Of a stretch of DNA of 64,000 nucleotides, positions 13,519-58,235 are shown one piece after another. How positions within the stretch are numbered: the stretch's first letter is position 1; each line of letters begins with the position of its first letter. The position numbers and the translations under genes were made by a program. This DNA is from Minisyncoccota bacterium (GTDB lineage Bacteria > Patescibacteriota > Minisyncoccia > Phycocordibacterales > SBAW01), in assembly GCA_035546575.1 (NCBI GenBank), contig DASZWN010000002.1, positions 257,056-321,055 of the forward strand. Direction: 5' to 3'. Below the pieces are notes generated by a model. It was not told the DNA's origin, did not search any database, and saw only the letters and a program-made list of their open reading frames with translations.

Positions 13519-15756
13519 ATGAAGTTGGTGATCGTTGAGTCGCCCGCTAAGGCGAAGACTATTGAGAAGTACCTTAACGATATTGTTAAGGATGGGCGCC
13601 TGCCTGCCGGTAGGCAGGACTTTGTCGTGCGCGCCTCGGTGGGCCATGTCCGCGATCTTCCGAAGTCTAATAAAAAAGCGATCGATATTCCTGCCGGCTT
13701 TGTGCCGCACTACGAGGTTGTGGCAGGCAAGATGAAGGTGATCGACGAGTTAAAAACGCTCGCTAAAAAAGCCGACGAGGTAATACTCGCGACCGACCCC
13801 GACCGCGAGGGCGAGGCTATTGCCTGGCACATTGGCCAGGAACTCAAGCTCAAAAAGCCGGAGCGCATCGTGTTCCACGAGATCACCAAAGAGGCTATCG
13901 CCGAGGCGCTTGCTAACCCGCGTCAGATCGACGAGCACTTGCGTTATGCACAAGAGGCACGCCGCGTGCTCGACCGCCTGGTGGGCTACGACCTCTCGGG
14001 GCTTATCTGGAAGAAGGTTCGATACGGGCTCTCCGCAGGGCGCGTACAATCGCCGGCTTTGCGCATCATTATGGAGCGCGAGCGCGAGATCCGCGCATTT
14101 ATCCCTGAGACCTACTGGGTTATTACCGCACAGACCCAGACCGAGCATAAAGATGCACTCAACCTCACCTGTGTTGAGGAGCCGCGCGACAAAAAACAAG
14201 TCGACCATATTATCGAGGCGGTTAAAAAAGACGGGCTTACTGTCGCCGACGTAACCGAGAGCGAAATGAAGCGGGCTCCAAGAGCGCCATTTACCACCTC
14301 CACCCTCCAGCAGGCGGCATCAACGCGCCTTGGCTTCTCCCCCTCCAACACCATGCGTATTGCGCAAAAACTCTACGAAGCCGGCCACATTACCTACATG
14401 CGCACCGACTCGGTAAACCTTGGCGCTCCTGCACGCGCAGCACTGCTTGCTCATGTTGAGAAAAAGTACGGCAAAGAGTACGTGCAGCCGCATACATTTG
14501 CGACAAAATCTAAAAATGCGCAGGAGGCTCATGAAGCAGTGCGCCCGACTCATATAGAAAAGGAGTCGGTTGGCACAACGCCCGAACAAAAGAAGCTCTA
14601 TGAGCTGATTTGGGCCCGCACGCTCGCATCGCAAATGGCTGATGCAAAACTGCTCAAGACAAAAATAATTGCCGAGACAAAAGATGCAAAGGTTCCGCAA
14701 TTTGCAGCCAATGGATCGCGCGTGATGTTTGACGGCTGGCTGCGTGCCGACCCTGCAGCACGCGGCGAAGATGTCGAGCTGCCAAAAGTCTCTCCAAAAG
14801 AAACACTCGATGTTAAAGATGTTTCTGCGGAGGAAAAGGCTACCACCCCACCGCAGCGCTACTCCGAGGCCGGGCTGATCAAAGAGCTCGAGAAGCGCGG
14901 TATCGGCCGGCCGTCAACGTACGCAAGCATCATGAAGACGCTCCAAGACCGCGGCTACGTACTCAAGGAAGGGCGCTCGCTAATACCTACCGACACCGGC
15001 GATGTGGTCTCAACATTCCTTGAAGACAACTTCCCTACCTATATCTCGGATACGTTTACTGCAGAGATGGAAGACGAGCTCGACGAAATTGCTCTTGGCA
15101 AACGCGAGTATGCAAAGACGCTCGGCGACTTCTATACCCCGTTTCTTAAAGACGTAAAACTCAAAGACAAAGAAGCCGGTAAGATTACCGATCTGGGGCC
15201 GGCACCAAAAGAGTATACCTGCCCCATATGCGGCAGCCCGATGGTGTTTAAGCTCTCTCGCCAGGGCAAATTTATGTCTTGCTCGCGCTTCCCCGACTGT
15301 TTGGGTGCTCGTACAGAAACCGGCGAGGTAATCTCAAACGAGCCGCCAAAACCAATCGGCACGTATCCGGAAAATGGCGAACCTATTTATGTGCTCACCG
15401 GCCGCTTTGGCCCTTATGTGCAAGTTGGCGAAACTCCGACCGGCAAAGGCTCAAAGTCTAAAAACAAACCCAAACGCGGCTCAATTCCTAAAGAAAAAAT
15501 CCCTGAGGAGGTGACTCTCGAAGATGCGCTTAAATATTTGAGCCTCCCGCGTGTACTTGGCAAACATCCGGACACCGAAGAAACTATTACCGCCAACATC
15601 GGCCGCTTCGGTCCCTACATTGCGCACAACACCAAACCAAAGCCGGACTTCCGCTCGCTAAAAACCGACGACGTATATGCAATAACGCTTGAAAGAGCCC
15701 TCGAAATCTTAAGCGAAGAAAAGAAGCGCCGCGGGTTTACAAAGAAAGCAAAATAA
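13519..15756 (+). CDS. topA: DNA topoisomerase I, with an in-frame 20 bp palindrome (LPAGRQ) in the TOPRIM N-terminus
   Basis: KLVIVESPAKAKTIEKYL, SVGHVRDLP, C-terminal Zn ribbons. Confidence 0.95.
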   Translation: MKLVIVESPAKAKTIEKYLNDIVKDGRLPAGRQDFVVRASVGHVRDLPKSNKKAIDIPAGFVPHYEVVAGKMKVIDELKTLAKKADEVILATDPDREGEAIAWHIGQELKLKKPERIVFHEITKEAIAEALANPRQIDEHLRYAQEARRVLDRLVGYDLSGLIWKKVRYGLSAGRVQSPALRIIMEREREIRAFIPETYWVITAQTQTEHKDALNLTCVEEPRDKKQVDHIIEAVKKDGLTVADVTESEMKRAPRAPFTTSTLQQAASTRLGFSPSNTMRIAQKLYEAGHITYMRTDSVNLGAPARAALLAHVEKKYGKEYVQPHTFATKSKNAQEAHEAVRPTHIEKESVGTTPEQKKLYELIWARTLASQMADAKLLKTKIIAETKDAKVPQFAANGSRVMFDGWLRADPAARGEDVELPKVSPKETLDVKDVSAEEKATTPPQRYSEAGLIKELEKRGIGRPSTYASIMKTLQDRGYVLKEGRSLIPTDTGDVVSTFLEDNFPTYISDTFTAEMEDELDEIALGKREYAKTLGDFYTPFLKDVKLKDKEAGKITDLGPAPKEYTCPICGSPMVFKLSRQGKFMSCSRFPDCLGARTETGEVISNEPPKPIGTYPENGEPIYVLTGRFGPYVQVGETPTGKGSKSKNKPKRGSIPKEKIPEEVTLEDALKYLSLPRVLGKHPDTEETITANIGRFGPYIAHNTKPKPDFRSLKTDDVYAITLERALEILSEEKKRRGFTKKAK
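13599..13618. repeat. 20 bp palindromic element A (CCTGCCTGCCGGTAGGCAGG), in frame in topA
   Basis: identical or near-identical copies at 19515, 21599, 42963, 45769, 47486 (21 bp variant), 49072 and 52984. Confidence 0.9.
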
Positions 15757-18494: not shown

Positions 18495-19469
18495 TTATAT
18501 AGAGAAGCTATTTGGGTCAAAAGTGTTTTCGTCTTTTGTTTTTTCTTCAAGGCTCCGGTCATCGAGTGCTTGCGCGGGCGCAACGTCTGAAGCTAGAGGC
18601 TCTTCAGGGCTCGGGGTGTGCTCAACTTCCTTGCCTTGCGCGATGCGGCTTGCAAGCGCGCCAAACAGTACTCTAAGATCGTCCTCGTTGGTAAAATCGA
18701 TAGAGAGTTTACCGCCCCGCTCTTTTGGCTCAATAGCTACGCGCGTACCAAGTGCCTGAGTTAATTCGCGCTCCATTTCTAGTATTTCTGGCGCATAGAG
18801 ATACTCCTTTTTGCGCACTTTATCAAATGCAATGCGTCTTGCGATCGATTCTGTATCGCGCACTGTGAGTCGCTTGAGCATGATTTCCTTAAATAACGTG
18901 GTCTGCTCTTCCGGCCGCTCGGCAAGCATTAAAAGCGGGCGGGTATGGCCTTCGGAAATCTTGCCGTCGGCAAGCGCCTGCTGCATGTCCTCAGGGAGCC
19001 CGAGCAAACGGATGGTGTTGGAGACATACTCGCGGCTCTTCCCCACCCTTGCCGCAACCTCCGTGTGCTTAAACCCGAAGTCATTCACCAGTTGCGCAAA
19101 AGCTTTGGCACGATCTATCGGGTTGAGGTCCTCGCGCTGCAGGTTCTCTATTATTGCGAGTTCGAGCTTTGTTTTGTCATCGTCAAAAGAGTCGCGGATA
19201 AGTACCGGTACTTGCGCAATACCCGCGAGCTTTGCCGCGCGCAGGCGGCGCTCGCCGGCAATCAACTCATACTCTGCAGCCAAGCCGCCGCCCTCCTTCT
19301 CTACCTCGCGGCGCGAGACGGTAAGCGGCTGTATCACGCCATATTGGCGCACCGAGTTGGCCAGATCGCGCAGCTTTGCCTCGTCAAACTCTTTGCGGGG
19401 TTGGAAAGGATTCGGCTTTATTTTGTCTACCTCGACCCAAAAAATCGCATTGTTGTAAAAGCCTGACAT
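18495..19469 (-). CDS. parB: chromosome partitioning protein ParB/Spo0J
   Basis: ParB box (VIQPLTVSRRE...LIAGERRLRAAKLAG); start re-derived at 19469, since the ORF-track extension reads through a repeat. Confidence 0.85.
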   Translation of the reverse strand: MSGFYNNAIFWVEVDKIKPNPFQPRKEFDEAKLRDLANSVRQYGVIQPLTVSRREVEKEGGGLAAEYELIAGERRLRAAKLAGIAQVPVLIRDSFDDDKTKLELAIIENLQREDLNPIDRAKAFAQLVNDFGFKHTEVAARVGKSREYVSNTIRLLGLPEDMQQALADGKISEGHTRPLLMLAERPEEQTTLFKEIMLKRLTVRDTESIARRIAFDKVRKKEYLYAPEILEMERELTQALGTRVAIEPKERGGKLSIDFTNEDDLRVLFGALASRIAQGKEVEHTPSPEEPLASDVAPAQALDDRSLEEKTKDENTFDPNSFSI

Positions 19470-19499
19470 AAACGATATTCTAACACAGCAGAGTAGTTT

Positions 19500-19558
19500 G
19501 CCGGAGTGGCGGAACCTGCCTGCCGGCAGGCAGGTTGGTATACGCGCACGACTCAAAA
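19500..19558 (+). repeat. duplicated 5' half of tRNA-Leu(CAA) (nt 1-38), interrupted by the 20 bp palindrome A
   Basis: GCCGGAGTGGCGGAA-[CCTGCCTGCCGGCAGGCAGG]-TTGGTATACGCGCACGACTCAAAA is identical to 19803-19843 apart from the insertion. Confidence 0.85.
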
Positions 19559-19568
19559 GAGACGATGT

Positions 19569-19802
19569 ATGTATTACGTATACGCCATCAAAAGTAGCCT
19601 TAGAAACTATCTGTACGTCGGCCTAACTGCGGATATTGAGAGACGATTAAGTGAGCACAATAAAGGCCGAAATAAAACGACTCGACCATATAGACCATTT
19701 ACGCTAGTGTATAGCGAGGCCTTGTCGGATAGAAGGTCGGCAAGGAGTAGAGAAAAATACCTTAAATCAGGAGTTGGTAAGGAATTCCTGAAAAATAAAT
19801 AA
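19569..19802 (+). CDS. small GIY-YIG nuclease-domain protein (COG2827/YhbQ-like)
   Basis: MYYVYAIKSS...YVGLTADIERRLSEHNKG; sits between the duplicated tRNA half and the intact tRNA-Leu. Confidence 0.7.
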   Translation: MYYVYAIKSSLRNYLYVGLTADIERRLSEHNKGRNKTTRPYRPFTLVYSEALSDRRSARSREKYLKSGVGKEFLKNK

Positions 19803-19884
19803 GCCGGAGTGGCGGAATTGGTATACGCGCACGACTCAAAATCGTGTCTCGCAAGGGATGGGAGTTCGACTCTCCCCTCCGGCA
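19803..19884 (+). tRNA. tRNA-Leu(CAA)
   Basis: long variable arm, anticodon loop CTCAAAA, T-loop GTTCGACTC. Confidence 0.8.
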
Positions 19885-19949
19885 CAACGTTTATTTTCCA
19901 CTAGTTTATGATATTGTGCTGCTAGCTCGAACCTTGAAGGAGATATTCC

Positions 19950-20669
19950 GTGGCTTCAACAAGACTGGTTTTCGCATGTGACGTGAGTGAGCCTGGTCTA
20001 GGACGCCATCTGATTAACCTGGCGGCTCCTGAGATAGACGTCGTTAAGACCGGCCTCGAGGCAATGACTGCCGAGGACGACATGGGCGAGACTCTTGCGA
20101 GAGGATTTCGCATCAGAGCCCAGGAGCTTGGGAAAGGTTGCATGTGGGACATGAAGCTTCTCGACATCGGCAATACAATGGCCGCTGCAGTGCGCAACAT
20201 CGTGCGACATGGCTCGACCCTTTTCACCCTCCATGCCATGGCCAGCAACGACGCACTGCAAGCAGTGGTGCAAGCCACAGCTGGCACAAAATCTCTGCCG
20301 CTCGCGGTCACGGTCTTGACCGACTTGGACGATCCGCAGTGTATCTCACGCTTTGGAGTTGATTCCAACACGTCAGTACTGCATTTCGCGAAGATCGCCT
20401 ACGATTGCGGTATTCGCGGATTTGTCTGCTCAGCAAAAGAAGCGAGGGCAATTCGCGATAAATTCCCCGACGTCGTAATCGTCACGCCGGCTATCCGCCC
20501 GTTATGGGCAGTCGGTAAAGATGAGCAGAAGCGGGTTACTACCCCGACCGAGGCAGCGCAAGCTGGGGCTGACTATATCGTCGTCGGTCGGCCTATCTCG
20601 AATCCGCCACTTTCCATGAATCACCGCCAGGCCGCCCGTGAGATCCGCGAGGAACTCTTGGCAGCCTGA
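19950..20669 (+). CDS. pyrF: orotidine 5'-phosphate decarboxylase (GTG start)
   Basis: DMKLLDIGNT motif; RBS GAAGGAGA. Confidence 0.85.
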   Translation: MASTRLVFACDVSEPGLGRHLINLAAPEIDVVKTGLEAMTAEDDMGETLARGFRIRAQELGKGCMWDMKLLDIGNTMAAAVRNIVRHGSTLFTLHAMASNDALQAVVQATAGTKSLPLAVTVLTDLDDPQCISRFGVDSNTSVLHFAKIAYDCGIRGFVCSAKEARAIRDKFPDVVIVTPAIRPLWAVGKDEQKRVTTPTEAAQAGADYIVVGRPISNPPLSMNHRQAAREIREELLAA

Positions 20670-21509: not shown

Positions 21510-22418
21510 GTGCACAAGCCAAAAATCATCGCTATCGTTGGTCCTACCGCCTCGGGCAAGTCTGCCCTTGGTATTTTTCTCGCGCAAAAGCTCAGGCGCC
21601 TGCCTGCCGGTAGGCAGGGCGAGATCATCTCTGCCGATTCTCGGCAGGTATACAAAGGCCTCGATATAGGGACCGGCAAAGTAACCAAAAAAGAGATGGC
21701 TGGTATTTCCCACCACCTGCTTGATGTGGCCTCACCTAAAAAAGTATTTACTGTCGACGACTTTATAAAAAAAGCCTCTGCTACAATCACTACCATATAT
21801 GGTAGTGGCCATACGCCGATTATTGTGGGTGGTACCGGCTTGTATATCGATGCGCTTCTGGGCCGCATAAGCATCCCCAGCGTACCGCCCAACGAAGAGC
21901 TACGTACGCAGCTGGAGAAAAAGAGTGCTACTACGCTATTGAAAATACTCCAAAGACTCGACCCCGAGCGCGCTGAAACAGTCGACCAAAAAAACCCTCG
22001 CAGGCTTGTCCGCGCTATCGAGATAGCCAGGGCAATCGGCAAAACTCCGCCCAAAAAAATCGAGGAAAAGTACGAGATCCTATGGCTCGGCCTGAATCCG
22101 TCTGACCAGGTACTCAAGAAAAATATCCATACTCGCCTGCTTGTCCGCATGAAATTAGGAATGGTCGCCGAAGCTAAACGACTTCACGCACAAGGCCTTT
22201 CCTACAAACGCATGCGGGAGCTCGGGCTCGAGTATCGATATCTTGCAATGTACTTGCAAGATACATTAACTAGAGGCGATTTTGAAATACAGCTTGAGCG
22301 CGCCATCTGGCACTACGCCAAACGCCAGCGCACTTGGTTTAAGCGCAATCAAGAGATCCATTGGATAAAAAACAAAACAGAAGCCCTACGGCTAGCAAAA
22401 GGCTTCCTTTCACGCTAA
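21510..22418 (+). CDS. miaA: tRNA dimethylallyltransferase (GTG start), with an in-frame palindrome A (RRLPAGRQ) after the P-loop region
   Basis: IIAIVGPTASGKS ... ISADSRQVYKGLDIGTGK. Confidence 0.9.
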   Translation: MHKPKIIAIVGPTASGKSALGIFLAQKLRRLPAGRQGEIISADSRQVYKGLDIGTGKVTKKEMAGISHHLLDVASPKKVFTVDDFIKKASATITTIYGSGHTPIIVGGTGLYIDALLGRISIPSVPPNEELRTQLEKKSATTLLKILQRLDPERAETVDQKNPRRLVRAIEIARAIGKTPPKKIEEKYEILWLGLNPSDQVLKKNIHTRLLVRMKLGMVAEAKRLHAQGLSYKRMRELGLEYRYLAMYLQDTLTRGDFEIQLERAIWHYAKRQRTWFKRNQEIHWIKNKTEALRLAKGFLSR

Positions 22419-34430: not shown

Positions 34431-35477
34431 ATGCCCGATACAACGGCACCAGCGCCTGATCCCTCAAAAGAGGGATACTTTCTCGATTTACCCAGTCCGC
34501 GCGATAGCACGGTTGAGCGCGATCGAGCATCTCGTGCGCTCGACTTCGCGATCTCAACCATTGTGCTGTGGGGCGGACCGATCGTTCTCCTCCTCTGGTG
34601 GTCAATGTTGGTGTCTCCCTCACTCGCACCCTTCGCGATCCTGATCGGATTCGTGATCGGCGCATTCCTGGAATATCTGGGGACGCAGAAGCTGATCATC
34701 TACAACGAGGAATGGACGGCCTATGCGACAAACGACCCGTTTAGCGGGGACAACGTCGCATACGGACCGGGAGCCCATCTGTCCCACTTCTGGGAACAGC
34801 GCAACAAGAGCGGTATCTATTCGCTCGAGCGCATAACCAGGGTGTTTACCGTCGATGTGGCGACGACGACCAGCAAGGTCACGGCAACCGTTACCTACCA
34901 ATACGCCGTGTACTTGCCTTGGTTGCTCAACTTCATCGGCAACGACATATCGACAATCGAGAGCGGCTTCATCGGCTTTCTCCAAAGCTTCCTCACGGAA
35001 AAACTCGCCGGAGATACCGCCGAAAGTGCGCGGAAGAAAATCCGCGAACTGAACACCTTACTTGCGCAGGAGTTCATGCAGGTTAAAAACCTCGCAGGAA
35101 CGAGTGCGCGGGAATTCGAGGAAAAGAACGGGATTCTTAGTGTGAGCATCCTGATTACCGGGCTCGCATTGCCGGAAGCCGTTCAGAAAACTCGCGACGC
35201 CGTCGAGGAAGCGCGAGTCCTGATGGAAGTTGCCGCTCGGATGATGGGCAAGGATCCTGAAAAATTCATGCAGCAAGTGCTTGATGGAACGATCCCGTGG
35301 TCGCAGTACGAGAAGATCCTCAACCGCGCCATGGCTGTCTCCGAGAACGCACAGCTGGAGCTGTTTGCGGTCGAAGGAGATATCGGCAATCTTGGAGCCG
35401 CTGCTCTTGCTCGCTTTGCCAAGCATGGTCTTGGCGGCGGCGAAGAAGGCGGCAAGAAAAAAGGTAAAGGAAAGTGA
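34431..35477 (+). CDS. membrane protein (2 TM), possibly SPFH/band-7-like
   Basis: two TM helices, then a roughly 250 aa domain, then a Gly/Lys-rich tail; family assignment is weak. Confidence 0.45.
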   Translation: MPDTTAPAPDPSKEGYFLDLPSPRDSTVERDRASRALDFAISTIVLWGGPIVLLLWWSMLVSPSLAPFAILIGFVIGAFLEYLGTQKLIIYNEEWTAYATNDPFSGDNVAYGPGAHLSHFWEQRNKSGIYSLERITRVFTVDVATTTSKVTATVTYQYAVYLPWLLNFIGNDISTIESGFIGFLQSFLTEKLAGDTAESARKKIRELNTLLAQEFMQVKNLAGTSAREFEEKNGILSVSILITGLALPEAVQKTRDAVEEARVLMEVAARMMGKDPEKFMQQVLDGTIPWSQYEKILNRAMAVSENAQLELFAVEGDIGNLGAAALARFAKHGLGGGEEGGKKKGKGK

Positions 35478-45768: not shown

Positions 45769-45788
45769 CCTGCCTACCGGCAGGCAGG
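45769..45788. repeat. palindrome A copy (intergenic)
   Basis: CCTGCCTACCGGCAGGCAGG. Confidence 0.9.
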
Positions 45789-48631: not shown

Positions 48632-49204
48632 CTACTTTGAGTGTATCTGCATCATCGCGGCATCTACACCTTCTTTCAGGATTATTTCCAGCGCCTCGCT
48701 CACTACTTTTTTTGCTTTTTTGAGCTTTTCTTGCTCTGCGGGTTTAAATTTGCCGAGTACAAAGTCCACTATCTTCTCGGCATCAGGCCGCTTGAGCTTG
48801 CCCGAGGGAGTTGTAGGGCTGATCCCCACACGCACACGCACAAAGTCCTGCGTCTTGAGCGCTTTAATCACCGACTTAACGCCGTTATGGCCGCCTGCGC
48901 TGGAGCCAAACGAGATTTTGACTCTCCCCAGCGGCAAATCGAGCTCATCATGCACCACAATAAGCCTCTGCGCAGCGGCTTTAGAGGGCACCATCTTTTT
49001 TAAAGGGCCGCCAGAGTTGTTCATATATACATCGGGCGTTATAAGCGTGGCTTTAACGCCAAACAGGCTTCCCTGCCTACCGGCAGGCAGGCCTTTTTCG
49101 CCCTCTTTCTTCTCTATATCGCGCAAAAAGTCGCGACCGATGTTGTGGCGCGTGCCTACGTACTCTTCATCTGGATTTCCGAGGCCTGCTACTACCCATT
49201 GCAT
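48632..49204 (-). CDS. pth: peptidyl-tRNA hydrolase, with an in-frame palindrome A (KGLPAGRQGS)
   Basis: GLGNPDEEYVGTRHNIG, HDELDLPLG, GGHNG. Confidence 0.9.
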   Translation of the reverse strand: MQWVVAGLGNPDEEYVGTRHNIGRDFLRDIEKKEGEKGLPAGRQGSLFGVKATLITPDVYMNNSGGPLKKMVPSKAAAQRLIVVHDELDLPLGRVKISFGSSAGGHNGVKSVIKALKTQDFVRVRVGISPTTPSGKLKRPDAEKIVDFVLGKFKPAEQEKLKKAKKVVSEALEIILKEGVDAAMMQIHSK

Positions 49205-52983: not shown

Positions 52984-53003
52984 CCTGCCTGCCGGCAGGC
53001 AGG
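52984..53003. repeat. palindrome A copy (intergenic; extended 28 bp perfect palindrome AAACCCTGCCTGCCGGCAGGCAGGGTTT)
   Basis: read directly. Confidence 0.9.
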
Positions 53004-57925: not shown

Positions 57926-57926
57926 G

Positions 57927-58013
57927 CGGAGAGGGAGAGATTCGAACTCTCGATCCAGTTTCCCAGATGCCGGTTTTCGAAACCGGTGCCTTCGACCACT
58001 CAGCCACCTCTCC
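57927..58013 (-). tRNA. tRNA-Ser(CGA)
   Basis: GGAGAGG acceptor, anticodon loop TTCGAAA, long variable arm, T-loop GAGTTCGAATCTC. Confidence 0.8.
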
Positions 58014-58130
58014 ATATACTTCGTGTGGAGACCGCGCTTGGCGCGGCATGGGTAGCTGAGTGGTCCAGCCACTTCGTGTGCTGGCTCGAAAGAAAGCAGT
58101 TTCTTTCTCGCCCAGCTCAGCCACCTCTCC
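58014..58130 (-). other. tRNA-Ser-derived structured fragment (begins with the first 19 nt of tRNA-Ser, then non-tRNA hairpins)
   Basis: GGAGAGGTGGCTGAGCTGG...; hairpins GAAAGAAA/TTTCTTTC, CCAGC/GCTGG, CCGCGC/GCGCGG; no T-loop. Confidence 0.4.
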
Positions 58131-58235
58131 CCGACGTCTTCGAACAGCAATCAAAGTACCATTTTTATACGTTTTCGGCAAAAAAGCGTTCAGTTGCCAG
58201 AAACTCAAAAACCCTTACACTTGTTCTACTTTTAT

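Follow-up and report, generated by a model that had tools for sequence, protein, structure and literature searches.

Why should a nuclease gene reduced to its catalytic core be wedged between half of a tRNA gene and an intact copy of the same gene, and why is the half copy interrupted by a perfect palindrome? These questions are raised by a locus in a stretch of 64,000 nucleotides (nt) from a Minisyncoccota bacterium (NCBI GenBank assembly GCA_035546575.1, contig DASZWN010000002.1, positions 257,056 to 321,055 of the forward strand), which we refer to as the window. We propose, with a probability of roughly 60%, that the locus is one copy of a widespread, horizontally transferred module composed of three parts: (i) a pseudo-tRNA interrupted by a 20-bp palindrome (P), (ii) a minimal GIY-YIG gene and (iii) an intact tRNA gene. 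The product of the gene would be a hairpin-recognising nuclease, with P as its cognate repeat.

Layout of the locus and its recurrence beside tRNA genes

The locus comprises the following features (positions in the window):

19500-19514, plus strand: pseudo-tRNA fragment corresponding to nt 1-15 of tRNA-Leu(CAA), 15/15 identical to 19803-19817
19515-19534, strandless: P (CCTGCCTGCCGGCAGGCAGG), a 20-bp perfect palindrome at the D-loop position of the pseudo-tRNA
19535-19558, plus strand: pseudo-tRNA fragment corresponding to nt 16-39 of tRNA-Leu(CAA), 24/24 identical to 19818-19841
19559-19568, plus strand: spacer of 10 nt ahead of the start codon
19569-19802, plus strand: GIY-YIG nuclease gene, 77 codons and a TAA stop, single domain (Pfam PF01541)
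19803-19885, plus strand: intact tRNA-Leu(CAA) (ARAGORN; Rfam tRNA, 58.7 bits)

The second fragment of the pseudo-tRNA (nt 16-39) reaches as far as the 3' edge of the anticodon loop; the ATG of the open reading frame (ORF) follows 10 nt later, and its TAA stop lies flush with nt 1 of the intact tRNA. This arrangement is as the initial annotation had described it, apart from three small corrections. The exact copy of the tRNA 5' part comprises 39 nt (15 + 24, all identical) rather than 38; the ORF, placed at the right coordinates, has 77 codons plus a stop rather than 78; and the tRNA, given as ending at 19884, does so according to Rfam (19803-19884), whereas ARAGORN extends it to 19885.

The 15-nt plus 24-nt exact repeat is unique within the window. 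The half-tRNA, the intact tRNA-Leu(CAA) and the tRNA-Leu(TAG) of the window all have an unusual, genome-specific D-loop ('GGTATAC'), and the half-tRNA is therefore native sequence which was not imported. The shared D-loop also rules out, for this window, that the element carried an imported tRNA with it. The junction between the ORF and the tRNA leaves no space for a promoter, so that the ORF and the intact tRNA-Leu(CAA) are presumably co-transcribed as one transcript. Consensus promoter and terminator scans of the region found no signals, and patescibacterial signals may differ from the consensus used. A search of positions 19300-20000 against Rfam returned the tRNA only, with no family for the half-tRNA and hairpin. 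The neighbours of the module are parB and pyrF; no integrase is present at the locus, the flanking genes being housekeeping genes syntenic with those of relatives.

The same layout recurs in many other bacteria. A scan restricted to a single genome for each species confirmed 548 relatives, and we kept the 79 best loci (59-100% identity to the window protein), the window being counted as the 80th. The kept loci come from Bacteroidota (Chitinophagaceae, Cyclobacteriaceae, Sphingobacteriales and Flavobacteriales), Ignavibacteriota and Patescibacteria (Saccharibacteria, Paceibacterota, Kaiserbacteria and Wolfebacteria), with single loci from Planctomycetes, Verrucomicrobia and one gammaproteobacterial bin. 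A tRNA-Leu lies beside the ORF at 67 of the 80 loci: at 54 it is on the same strand and starts within 60 nt after the stop codon (median gap 2.5 nt), and at 13 it ends within 150 nt upstream of the ORF. At five loci the contig ends just past the ORF, and the remaining eight are mostly tandem arrays, with a tRNA-Leu somewhat further off. All five leucine anticodons are represented (CAA, TAA, TAG, GAG and CAG), and chance adjacency is negligible, because a genome has only a handful of tRNA-Leu genes. Two forms of the layout can be distinguished:

Type A (the window form): partial 5' tRNA copy with P, then ORF, then intact tRNA
Type B (the mirror form; loci L019, L020, L051 and L074): intact tRNA with terminator, then ORF, then partial 3' tRNA copy with P

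In both types the ORF lies between direct repeats of a part of the local tRNA, with P on the partial copy. The partial copies carry the lineage-specific bases of the adjoining intact tRNA on both sides of P, and in most homologous loci the counterpart of the nt 1-15 fragment agrees with the tRNA-Leu present there. The partial 5' copy often stops at the anticodon loop, with the ATG no more than 10 nt further on (the window, L003, L004, L016, L023, L030, L031, L063 and L078), and is shorter or longer in other loci. The segment formed by nt 1-15, P and nt 16 to approximately 24 is retained also in loci that have lost the remainder of the pseudo-tRNA. The repeat starts at tRNA nt 1 or up to 15 nt upstream of it (4-15 nt upstream in 15 of 42 loci). 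An origin by duplication of the mature tRNA at the RNA level, suggested by a start exactly at nt 1, is ruled out by these 15 loci and by a tRNA-Asn locus (see below) at which the repeat also reaches upstream of nt 1.

Tandem arrays of the unit occur at L003, L021 and L050 and also in complete genomes, and decayed copies of the module exist as well. Arrays are found in the complete isolate genome of Niabella insulamsoli (CP190246; L020) and in a chromosome-level metagenome-assembled genome (MAG) (OZ245027; L002), and the presence of the layout in these two genomes excludes an assembly artefact. In the latter, a Cyclobacteriaceae chromosome, the ORF and the intact tRNA-Leu(CAA) are followed by four near-identical 192-nt tandem units (1736-2590 of L002), each consisting of P, tRNA nt 16-85 and a terminator and having other sequence in place of the 5' acceptor strand; ARAGORN mistakes them for tRNA genes.

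The linkage extends to tRNAs of other amino acids. A metagenome scan for exact P (120 stretches listed) and a viral scan yielded relatives at 37-47% identity with the same layout and an identical P, located at tRNA-Arg(TCG) (with two copies of P in the D-loop), tRNA-Lys(CTT), tRNA-Ser(GGA) and tRNA-Asn(GTT). One distant relative in a viral contig sits at a tRNA-like gene of no identified type. In the viral contig L111 (490-960), a GIY-YIG gene 47% identical to that of the window has a D-arm fragment and P upstream. Downstream of it, a tRNA-like 5' part gives way at the anticodon loop to a long and apparently structured insert, which might be a group I intron; ARAGORN calls no tRNA there.

Conservation, insertion points and dispersal of the palindrome

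With up to four edits allowed, P is present at 75 of the 79 kept loci, and with few exceptions its position is within a partial copy of the tRNA-Leu of the same locus. A substitution-only match within 200 nt of the ORF was found at 66 loci, 39 of which have an exact copy and 15 a copy with one mismatch. The mean pairwise identity of P (93.9%) is far above that of codon position 3 of the ORF (45.5%), and this conservation, so much stronger than that of the adjoining gene, points to direct constraint (e.g. as a recognition site) or to constant re-copying. The suggestion in the initial annotation that the palindrome had landed independently in the half-tRNA has thus to be given up, the same 20-mer being a conserved part of the module in loci from other phyla.

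Folded as single-stranded DNA, P is predicted to form an 8-bp stem with a CCGG loop (-8 kcal/mol). Its insertion points within tRNA sequences are few in kind: the start of the D-loop (between nt 14 and 15 or nt 15 and 16; approximately 45 cases), the end of the D-loop (between nt 23 and 24; approximately 9), the 3' edge of the anticodon loop (between nt 39 and 40; 3) and the T-arm junction (nt 63-69; approximately 10). In addition, P is nested at the centre of another P at L018, L011 and L074. Each of these points is a junction of stem and loop, in the cloverleaf or in the hairpin. In the viral contig L104 (2239-2330), a tRNA-Met(CAT) that is complete in other respects has an exact P in its variable loop; ARAGORN still calls a 92-nt tRNA, and P might be tolerated there as an extra arm.

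P is also dispersed outside tRNA genes. The window contains seven copies with at most one mismatch, against none expected from 100 shuffles. Besides the copy in the pseudo-tRNA, these are:

13599-13618, strandless: in frame in topA (..RLPAGRQD..)
21599-21618, strandless: within a 21-nt, 7-amino-acid (aa) in-frame insert (..RLPAGRQ..) in miaA
42962-42981, strandless: in frame in gyrA
45769-45788, strandless: intergenic
49072-49091, strandless: in frame in pth
52984-53003, strandless: intergenic, perfect copy, stem extended by flanking bases

The copies in topA, miaA, gyrA and pth (four of the seven) are read in one common frame, as LPAGRQ. The 21-nt insert in miaA is missing from three orthologues, i.e. 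the presence of P at this site is polymorphic. One asymmetric variant (GGTAGG on the sense strand) is shared by the coding copies and the intergenic copy at 45769, and the only perfect copies in the window are those in the pseudo-tRNA (19515) and at 52984. Among the metagenome matches listed, a GIY-YIG gene lies within 400 nt of P in only 6 of the 120 stretches, and 47 of 121 copies of P are located in open frames of at least 150 codons. No P was found in 30 kb of sequence from relatives which lack the module at this site.

At 10.7% of sites, P was spanned by direct repeats 8 nt or more in length, as compared with 0.7% in shuffled pairings (an approximately 15-fold excess), which is a second hint of target duplication on insertion. 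P is thus mobile on its own. In the viral contig L113 (3915-4142), a P-like unit of 21 nt (CCATGCCTACCGGCAGGCAGG) is repeated in tandem at least 10 times, with a period equal to the length of the miaA insert.

The GIY-YIG protein and its arrival at the locus

Residues 1-68 of the 77-aa protein match the Pfam GIY-YIG domain (E = 1.1e-18, 67.7 bits, cut-off 22.6), and the catalytic residues which are invariant in the family alignment (Y5, Y16, G18, R26, H30 and E62) are all present. An AlphaFold model (mean confidence, pLDDT, 95.3) has the topology strand-strand-helix-strand-helix-helix and was matched by Foldseek to GIY-YIG domains only, 1ZG2 and Slx1 ranking above I-TevI and UvrC (for Slx1, TM-score 0.69 and root-mean-square deviation 2-3 A). 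Profile searches of the PDB gave 1YWL (E = 2.4e-7), 1ZG2 (E = 1.4e-6; UPF0213) and Slx1 (E = 8e-3), with only 22-34% identity to UPF0213 and Slx1 sequences. Domain, invariant residues and predicted fold together place the protein in the GIY-YIG superfamily, and the UPF0213/Slx1-like branch appears to be the closest one by sequence and fold, a matter of resemblance and not of orthology.

The protein has a single domain and nothing beyond the catalytic core; its homologues are 77-82 aa long. No DNA-binding domain is joined to the nuclease core within the 77 aa, and the score against the NCBIfam model of group I intron endonucleases (TIGR01453) was 19 bits, far short of the cut-off of 56. NCBI has a protein of 77 aa with 100% identity, annotated on a Candidatus Paceibacterota MAG contig of 327 kb; a query of the contig index for exactly the window protein gave no match. 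Approximately 1,400 database relatives were found, and about 3,100 clusters (50% identity) match the family profile at E <= 1e-10. A tblastn search of plasmids returned only distant UPF0213-like matches.

Many database entries (P0024, P0063, P0190, P0194, P0202, P0244 and others) have been over-extended at the N-terminus by gene callers, their false N-terminal residues being translated pseudo-tRNA and palindrome (e.g. MPEWRNLPAGRQVG and MAELVDLPAGRQAR). The alternative 98-aa ORF of the window, which starts with GTG (19506-19802), is an over-extension of the same kind.

At loci with a P match, the identity of the ORF at codon positions 1, 2 and 3 is 66%, 75% and 45.5%, respectively, a pattern indicative of purifying selection on the protein. 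A neighbour-joining tree of the 77-aa proteins is star-like, with phyla and tRNA isoacceptors intermingled.

The site itself is vacant in related genomes. Four syntenic relatives (L115, L241/L242 and L243; PyrF 53-63% identical) lack the module. They share with the window the gene order relA, parB, a gap, pyrF, a phosphoribosyltransferase-type gene (with a Pfam match in L115 only) and miaA; L115 also has a histidine phosphatase gene between relA and parB. Their parB-pyrF gap, of 183-213 nt as compared with 474 nt in the window, contains neither the ORF nor P but only tRNA-Leu(CAA), encoded on the opposite strand:

L115, 2332-2414, opposite to the window: tRNA-Leu(CAA)
L241, 1841-1922, opposite to the window: tRNA-Leu(CAA)
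L243, 1832-1916, opposite to the window: tRNA-Leu(CAA)

For two further syntenic contigs, gap lengths alone (235 and 404 nt) were recorded. The tRNA-Leu(CAA) genes of L115 and L241 have a deviant D-loop (GGCGTAATGGCAGCC) without the motif GGAA/TTGGTAGA, in which the slash marks the usual insertion point of P.

The GC content of the ORF is 40% (40% also at third codon positions), compared with 50-57% in most neighbouring genes, which places it in the lowest 2.7% of segments of the same size, and it has its closest homologues (approximately 72% identity) in Cyclobacteriaceae. Together with the empty sites and the foreign base composition, the origin of these homologues indicates that the gene is a horizontal arrival in this lineage. 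Inversion of the tRNA accompanied or followed this arrival.

These results bear out the proposal of the initial annotation that the locus reflects a mobile cassette aimed at a tRNA gene, given that a tRNA-Leu lies beside a family member in at least 67 of the 80 loci, in several phyla. Empty tRNA-Leu sites, for which it had recommended a search, exist in the four syntenic relatives, and the invariant synteny across distant lineages which would have told against mobility was not what was found. Its alternative, a single tRNA duplication with later capture of the endonuclease, is excluded by the recurrence of the layout. In L116/L117 (3372-4358; PyrF 63% identical), which lack the parB-tRNA-Leu synteny, a LAGLIDADG endonuclease ORF was noted directly downstream of pyrF.

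Mechanism, alternative explanations and related systems

Minimal GIY-YIG nucleases with a cognate hairpin repeat are already a known kind of system. The Ssn proteins (Chenal et al., Nat Commun 2025, PMC11893778) are single-domain GIY-YIG enzymes of approximately 94 aa whose binding target is a hairpin repeat (NTS/SRM) and which cleave the single-stranded DNA next to it; besides flanking the gene, the repeat is scattered in hundreds of copies, and the authors likened the system to REP/RAYT. The module described here has in common with Ssn a GIY-YIG protein of fewer than 100 aa, formed by a single domain without a DNA-binding domain, and a hairpin-forming inverted repeat that lies by the gene, has many dispersed genome copies and occurs in several phyla.

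Several differences are equally clear. P is a perfect 20-bp palindrome outside the SRM consensus, and it is near-invariant across nucleases diverged to 37% identity, whereas the repeats paired with Ssn enzymes are diverse. The gene directly adjoins a tRNA, with the repeat inside a pseudo-tRNA, while the Ssn paper makes no mention of tRNA, Bacteroidota or Patescibacteria (PMC11893778). Moreover, P is common in coding genes (four of the seven window copies, and the 47 of 121 listed metagenome copies in long open frames), in contrast to NTS, which lies inside genes only 2% of the time (PMC11893778). No Ssn-named structure appeared in the sequence and fold searches of the PDB. In protein size, domain make-up and repeat layout, the module resembles the published description of Ssn.

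By analogy with the Ssn nucleases, and in keeping with its Slx1-like fold, the nuclease may recognise the hairpin that P forms when the DNA is single-stranded or extruded, and nick at stem/loop junctions. Repair of the resulting breaks could spread P through the genome, including the tolerated 7-aa in-frame inserts in essential genes. In a rarer event, the gene cassette would move into a tRNA gene and part of the target would be duplicated; one copy of the target would stay intact, and the redundant partial copy would be free to carry P. The nuclease mRNA and the tRNA would derive from one transcript, with 5' processing of the tRNA setting the 3' end of the mRNA. As the gene lies 0-5 nt ahead of the tRNA, the two would be co-transcribed, which would ensure strong expression and make imprecise loss costly.

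A more far-reaching formulation is that P and the 77-aa protein constitute a previously unrecognised minimal mobile system. Its nuclease, a hydrolytic enzyme specific for DNA structure, would be what inserts the 20-21-bp palindrome wherever stem and loop meet in folded single-stranded DNA, be it in the loops of tRNA genes, at the centre of an existing P or in coding genes, to which LPAGRQ is added. The gene would ride before tRNA genes, crossing phyla (Bacteroidota, Patescibacteria) with one invariant 20-base recognition hairpin. We put this forward tentatively and regard it as somewhat more apt to fail than to hold.

Several points weigh against the proposed three-part module with a hairpin-recognising nuclease. 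Co-occurrence and co-conservation are the sole basis for regarding P as the recognition site of the 77-aa protein. GIY-YIG enzymes cut DNA and do not join it, so their chemistry does not account for the pasting of a 20-bp P into new sites. In the window, a stretch of native tRNA lies between P and the ORF; the two may have arrived separately, or the intervening stretch may have been homogenised by gene conversion. The boundary of the duplication is only approximately structural, as several type A repeats run upstream of tRNA nt 1. The tRNA of the window is inverted relative to all four empty sites, for which simple insertion does not account. The protein tree is too short to date the transfers or to resolve their history. 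Finally, the SRM consensus (HGTCWY..YYVSBRH..WNVSBRG..RNCYNB) has no match on the plus strand of the window and one unrelated match on the minus strand, none overlapping P.

Two other explanations have to be considered seriously, each of which we regard as unlikely. The first is a classical free-standing homing endonuclease comparable to SegB of phage T4, which would cut double-stranded tRNA-Leu genes lacking the gene, so that double-strand-break repair copies the gene in; the palindrome would merely destroy the target in the leftover copy. The strict linkage to tRNA-Leu, a D-arm target conserved across leucine isoacceptors and phyla, the variable presence at a syntenic site and the foreign composition of the ORF would all fit. 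There is also a precedent in SegB, a GIY-YIG enzyme encoded among tRNA genes, which recognises the conserved T-psi-C motif of tRNAs, drives the inheritance of the tRNA region and spreads its gene together with neighbouring tRNA sequence (PMC2330249). SegB differs, however, in having a DNA-binding part and a 27-bp double-stranded site, in lacking a palindrome and a pseudo-tRNA duplication, and in being confined to phage (PMC2330249).

The protein of the window, by contrast, is a bare catalytic core of 77 aa, far below the TIGR01453 cut-off, and intact, uninterrupted tRNA-Leu genes beside it and elsewhere in the genome would expose the host to its own enzyme. Neither tandem arrays nor duplications of the target on the flanks are produced by homing, which also leaves both the inversion of the tRNA relative to the empty alleles and the dispersal of the same 20-mer in coding genes unexplained. 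The homing-endonuclease footprint seen in the locus by the initial annotation is therefore doubtful.

The second explanation, no more probable than the first, is that the nuclease is a domesticated host factor, in the way that RAYT transposases are kept for REP repeats. It would manage P hairpins (in recombination, replication restart or the control of incoming single-stranded DNA), with the tRNA operon as a reliable means of expression. Such a role would agree with the purifying selection (66%, 75% and 46% identity at the three codon positions) and the invariant catalytic residues, with the usual single gene copy per tRNA, with the distance of most copies of P from any nuclease gene, and with the host-level role of Ssn in Neisseria, where it modulates transformation. 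It is at odds with the patchy distribution of the module even among close syntenic relatives, whose 30 kb of sequence contain no P, and with the foreign GC content of the ORF, the intermingling of phyla in the protein tree, the tandem arrays and decayed copies, and the parasitic appearance of P in essential genes.

The comparison with REP/BIME repeats and RAYT (IS200/IS605-like Y1) is itself instructive. In both cases an enzyme gene is flanked by its own palindromic repeat, which has many more dispersed copies, and in both the proposed action is recognition of a hairpin in single-stranded DNA. The enzyme considered here, however, is a hydrolytic GIY-YIG nuclease and not an HUH/Y1 transposase, with no obvious strand-transfer chemistry; no HUH/Y1 transposase lies next to the repeat, GIY-YIG being the only gene in the module. 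In addition, REPs are extragenic, whereas P is also found in frame in genes, and REP/RAYT systems have no tRNA linkage.

There is a much smaller chance that the half-tRNA and hairpin act mainly as an RNA element, i.e. a structured 5' leader which stabilises or regulates the nuclease mRNA, or which competes with the downstream tRNA in folding or processing, their conservation then reflecting RNA function. The hairpin is stable, the ORF and tRNA must share a transcript, and the P-bearing segment up to approximately nt 24 is retained where the rest of the pseudo-tRNA is lost. A leader cannot be reconciled, however, with type B loci, in which the P-bearing fragment lies downstream of the ORF, nor with the equal conservation of P when dispersed in coding genes and intergenic DNA; furthermore, no Rfam family and no consensus promoter or terminator signal was matched. 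A one-off local event (a duplicated tRNA plus gene capture, or a chimeric join made in assembly where a tRNA is repeated) can be set aside: MAG assemblies can collapse or mis-join repeats, and several contigs do break right after the ORF, but the same layout is present in dozens of independent assemblies, including CP190246 and OZ245027.

Other known elements share single traits with the module. Like the islands placed in tRNA genes by integrases, it is an insert between direct repeats of part of a tRNA with one intact tRNA preserved; here, however, the insert is only approximately 250-430 bp long, no integrase is involved, and the duplicated portion of the tRNA, variable in length, can be the 5' or the 3' one. 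Rickettsia palindromic elements (RPEs), reportedly described by Ogata and colleagues in 2000, lie in frame in protein-coding genes and add short peptides to essential proteins, as P does. RPEs are approximately 100-150 bp long and restricted to one genus, whereas P has 20-21 bp and is shared across phyla; no dedicated enzyme is known to have been assigned to RPEs. The closest solved sequences and folds to the window protein are those of UPF0213 (YhbQ/YazA) and Slx1. The latter is a structure-specific enzyme which cuts branched DNA at single-/double-strand junctions. Slx1 differs in needing Slx4 and a RING domain, and neither UPF0213 nor Slx1 has a known association with a repeat or a tRNA.

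In the literature searched, neither the 20-mer nor its 13-mer core appears in any paper, and we found no description of a GIY-YIG/tRNA/palindrome module. What is new here is (i) the embedding of the system in tRNA genes, with a pseudo-tRNA footprint, (ii) the association of one invariant 20-bp palindrome with nucleases diverged to 37% identity across phyla, and (iii) frequent in-frame insertion into essential genes. The pairing of a minimal GIY-YIG protein with a hairpin repeat is thereby extended to a tRNA-embedded form. By tying a conserved 20-bp palindrome, dispersed in several phyla, to a specific tiny nuclease gene, the module offers a testable origin for such repeats, and the target-duplication footprint together with the empty sites make its mobility directly testable. 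It also explains recurring annotation errors, namely partial tRNA genes, over-extended GIY-YIG proteins and contig breaks. If the proposed function is correct, the 77-aa enzyme would be a ready-made nuclease with a defined 20-nt hairpin site, of interest for single-stranded-DNA tools.

Two further observations were made in the window. A weak tblastn match lies near tRNA-Leu(TAG) (34487-34594), without Pfam support. On the minus strand, nt 1-15 of tRNA-Ser(CGA) (57926-58013) are copied 117 nt upstream of the gene (region 58013-58135). Directly after this copy come an imperfect palindrome of another sequence (CTGGGCGAGAAAGAAACTGCTTTCTTTCGAGCCAG), the D-arm copied in inverted orientation and a direct repeat (CACACGAAGT), an arrangement which resembles an ORF-less analogue of the tRNA-Leu layout built around another hairpin.

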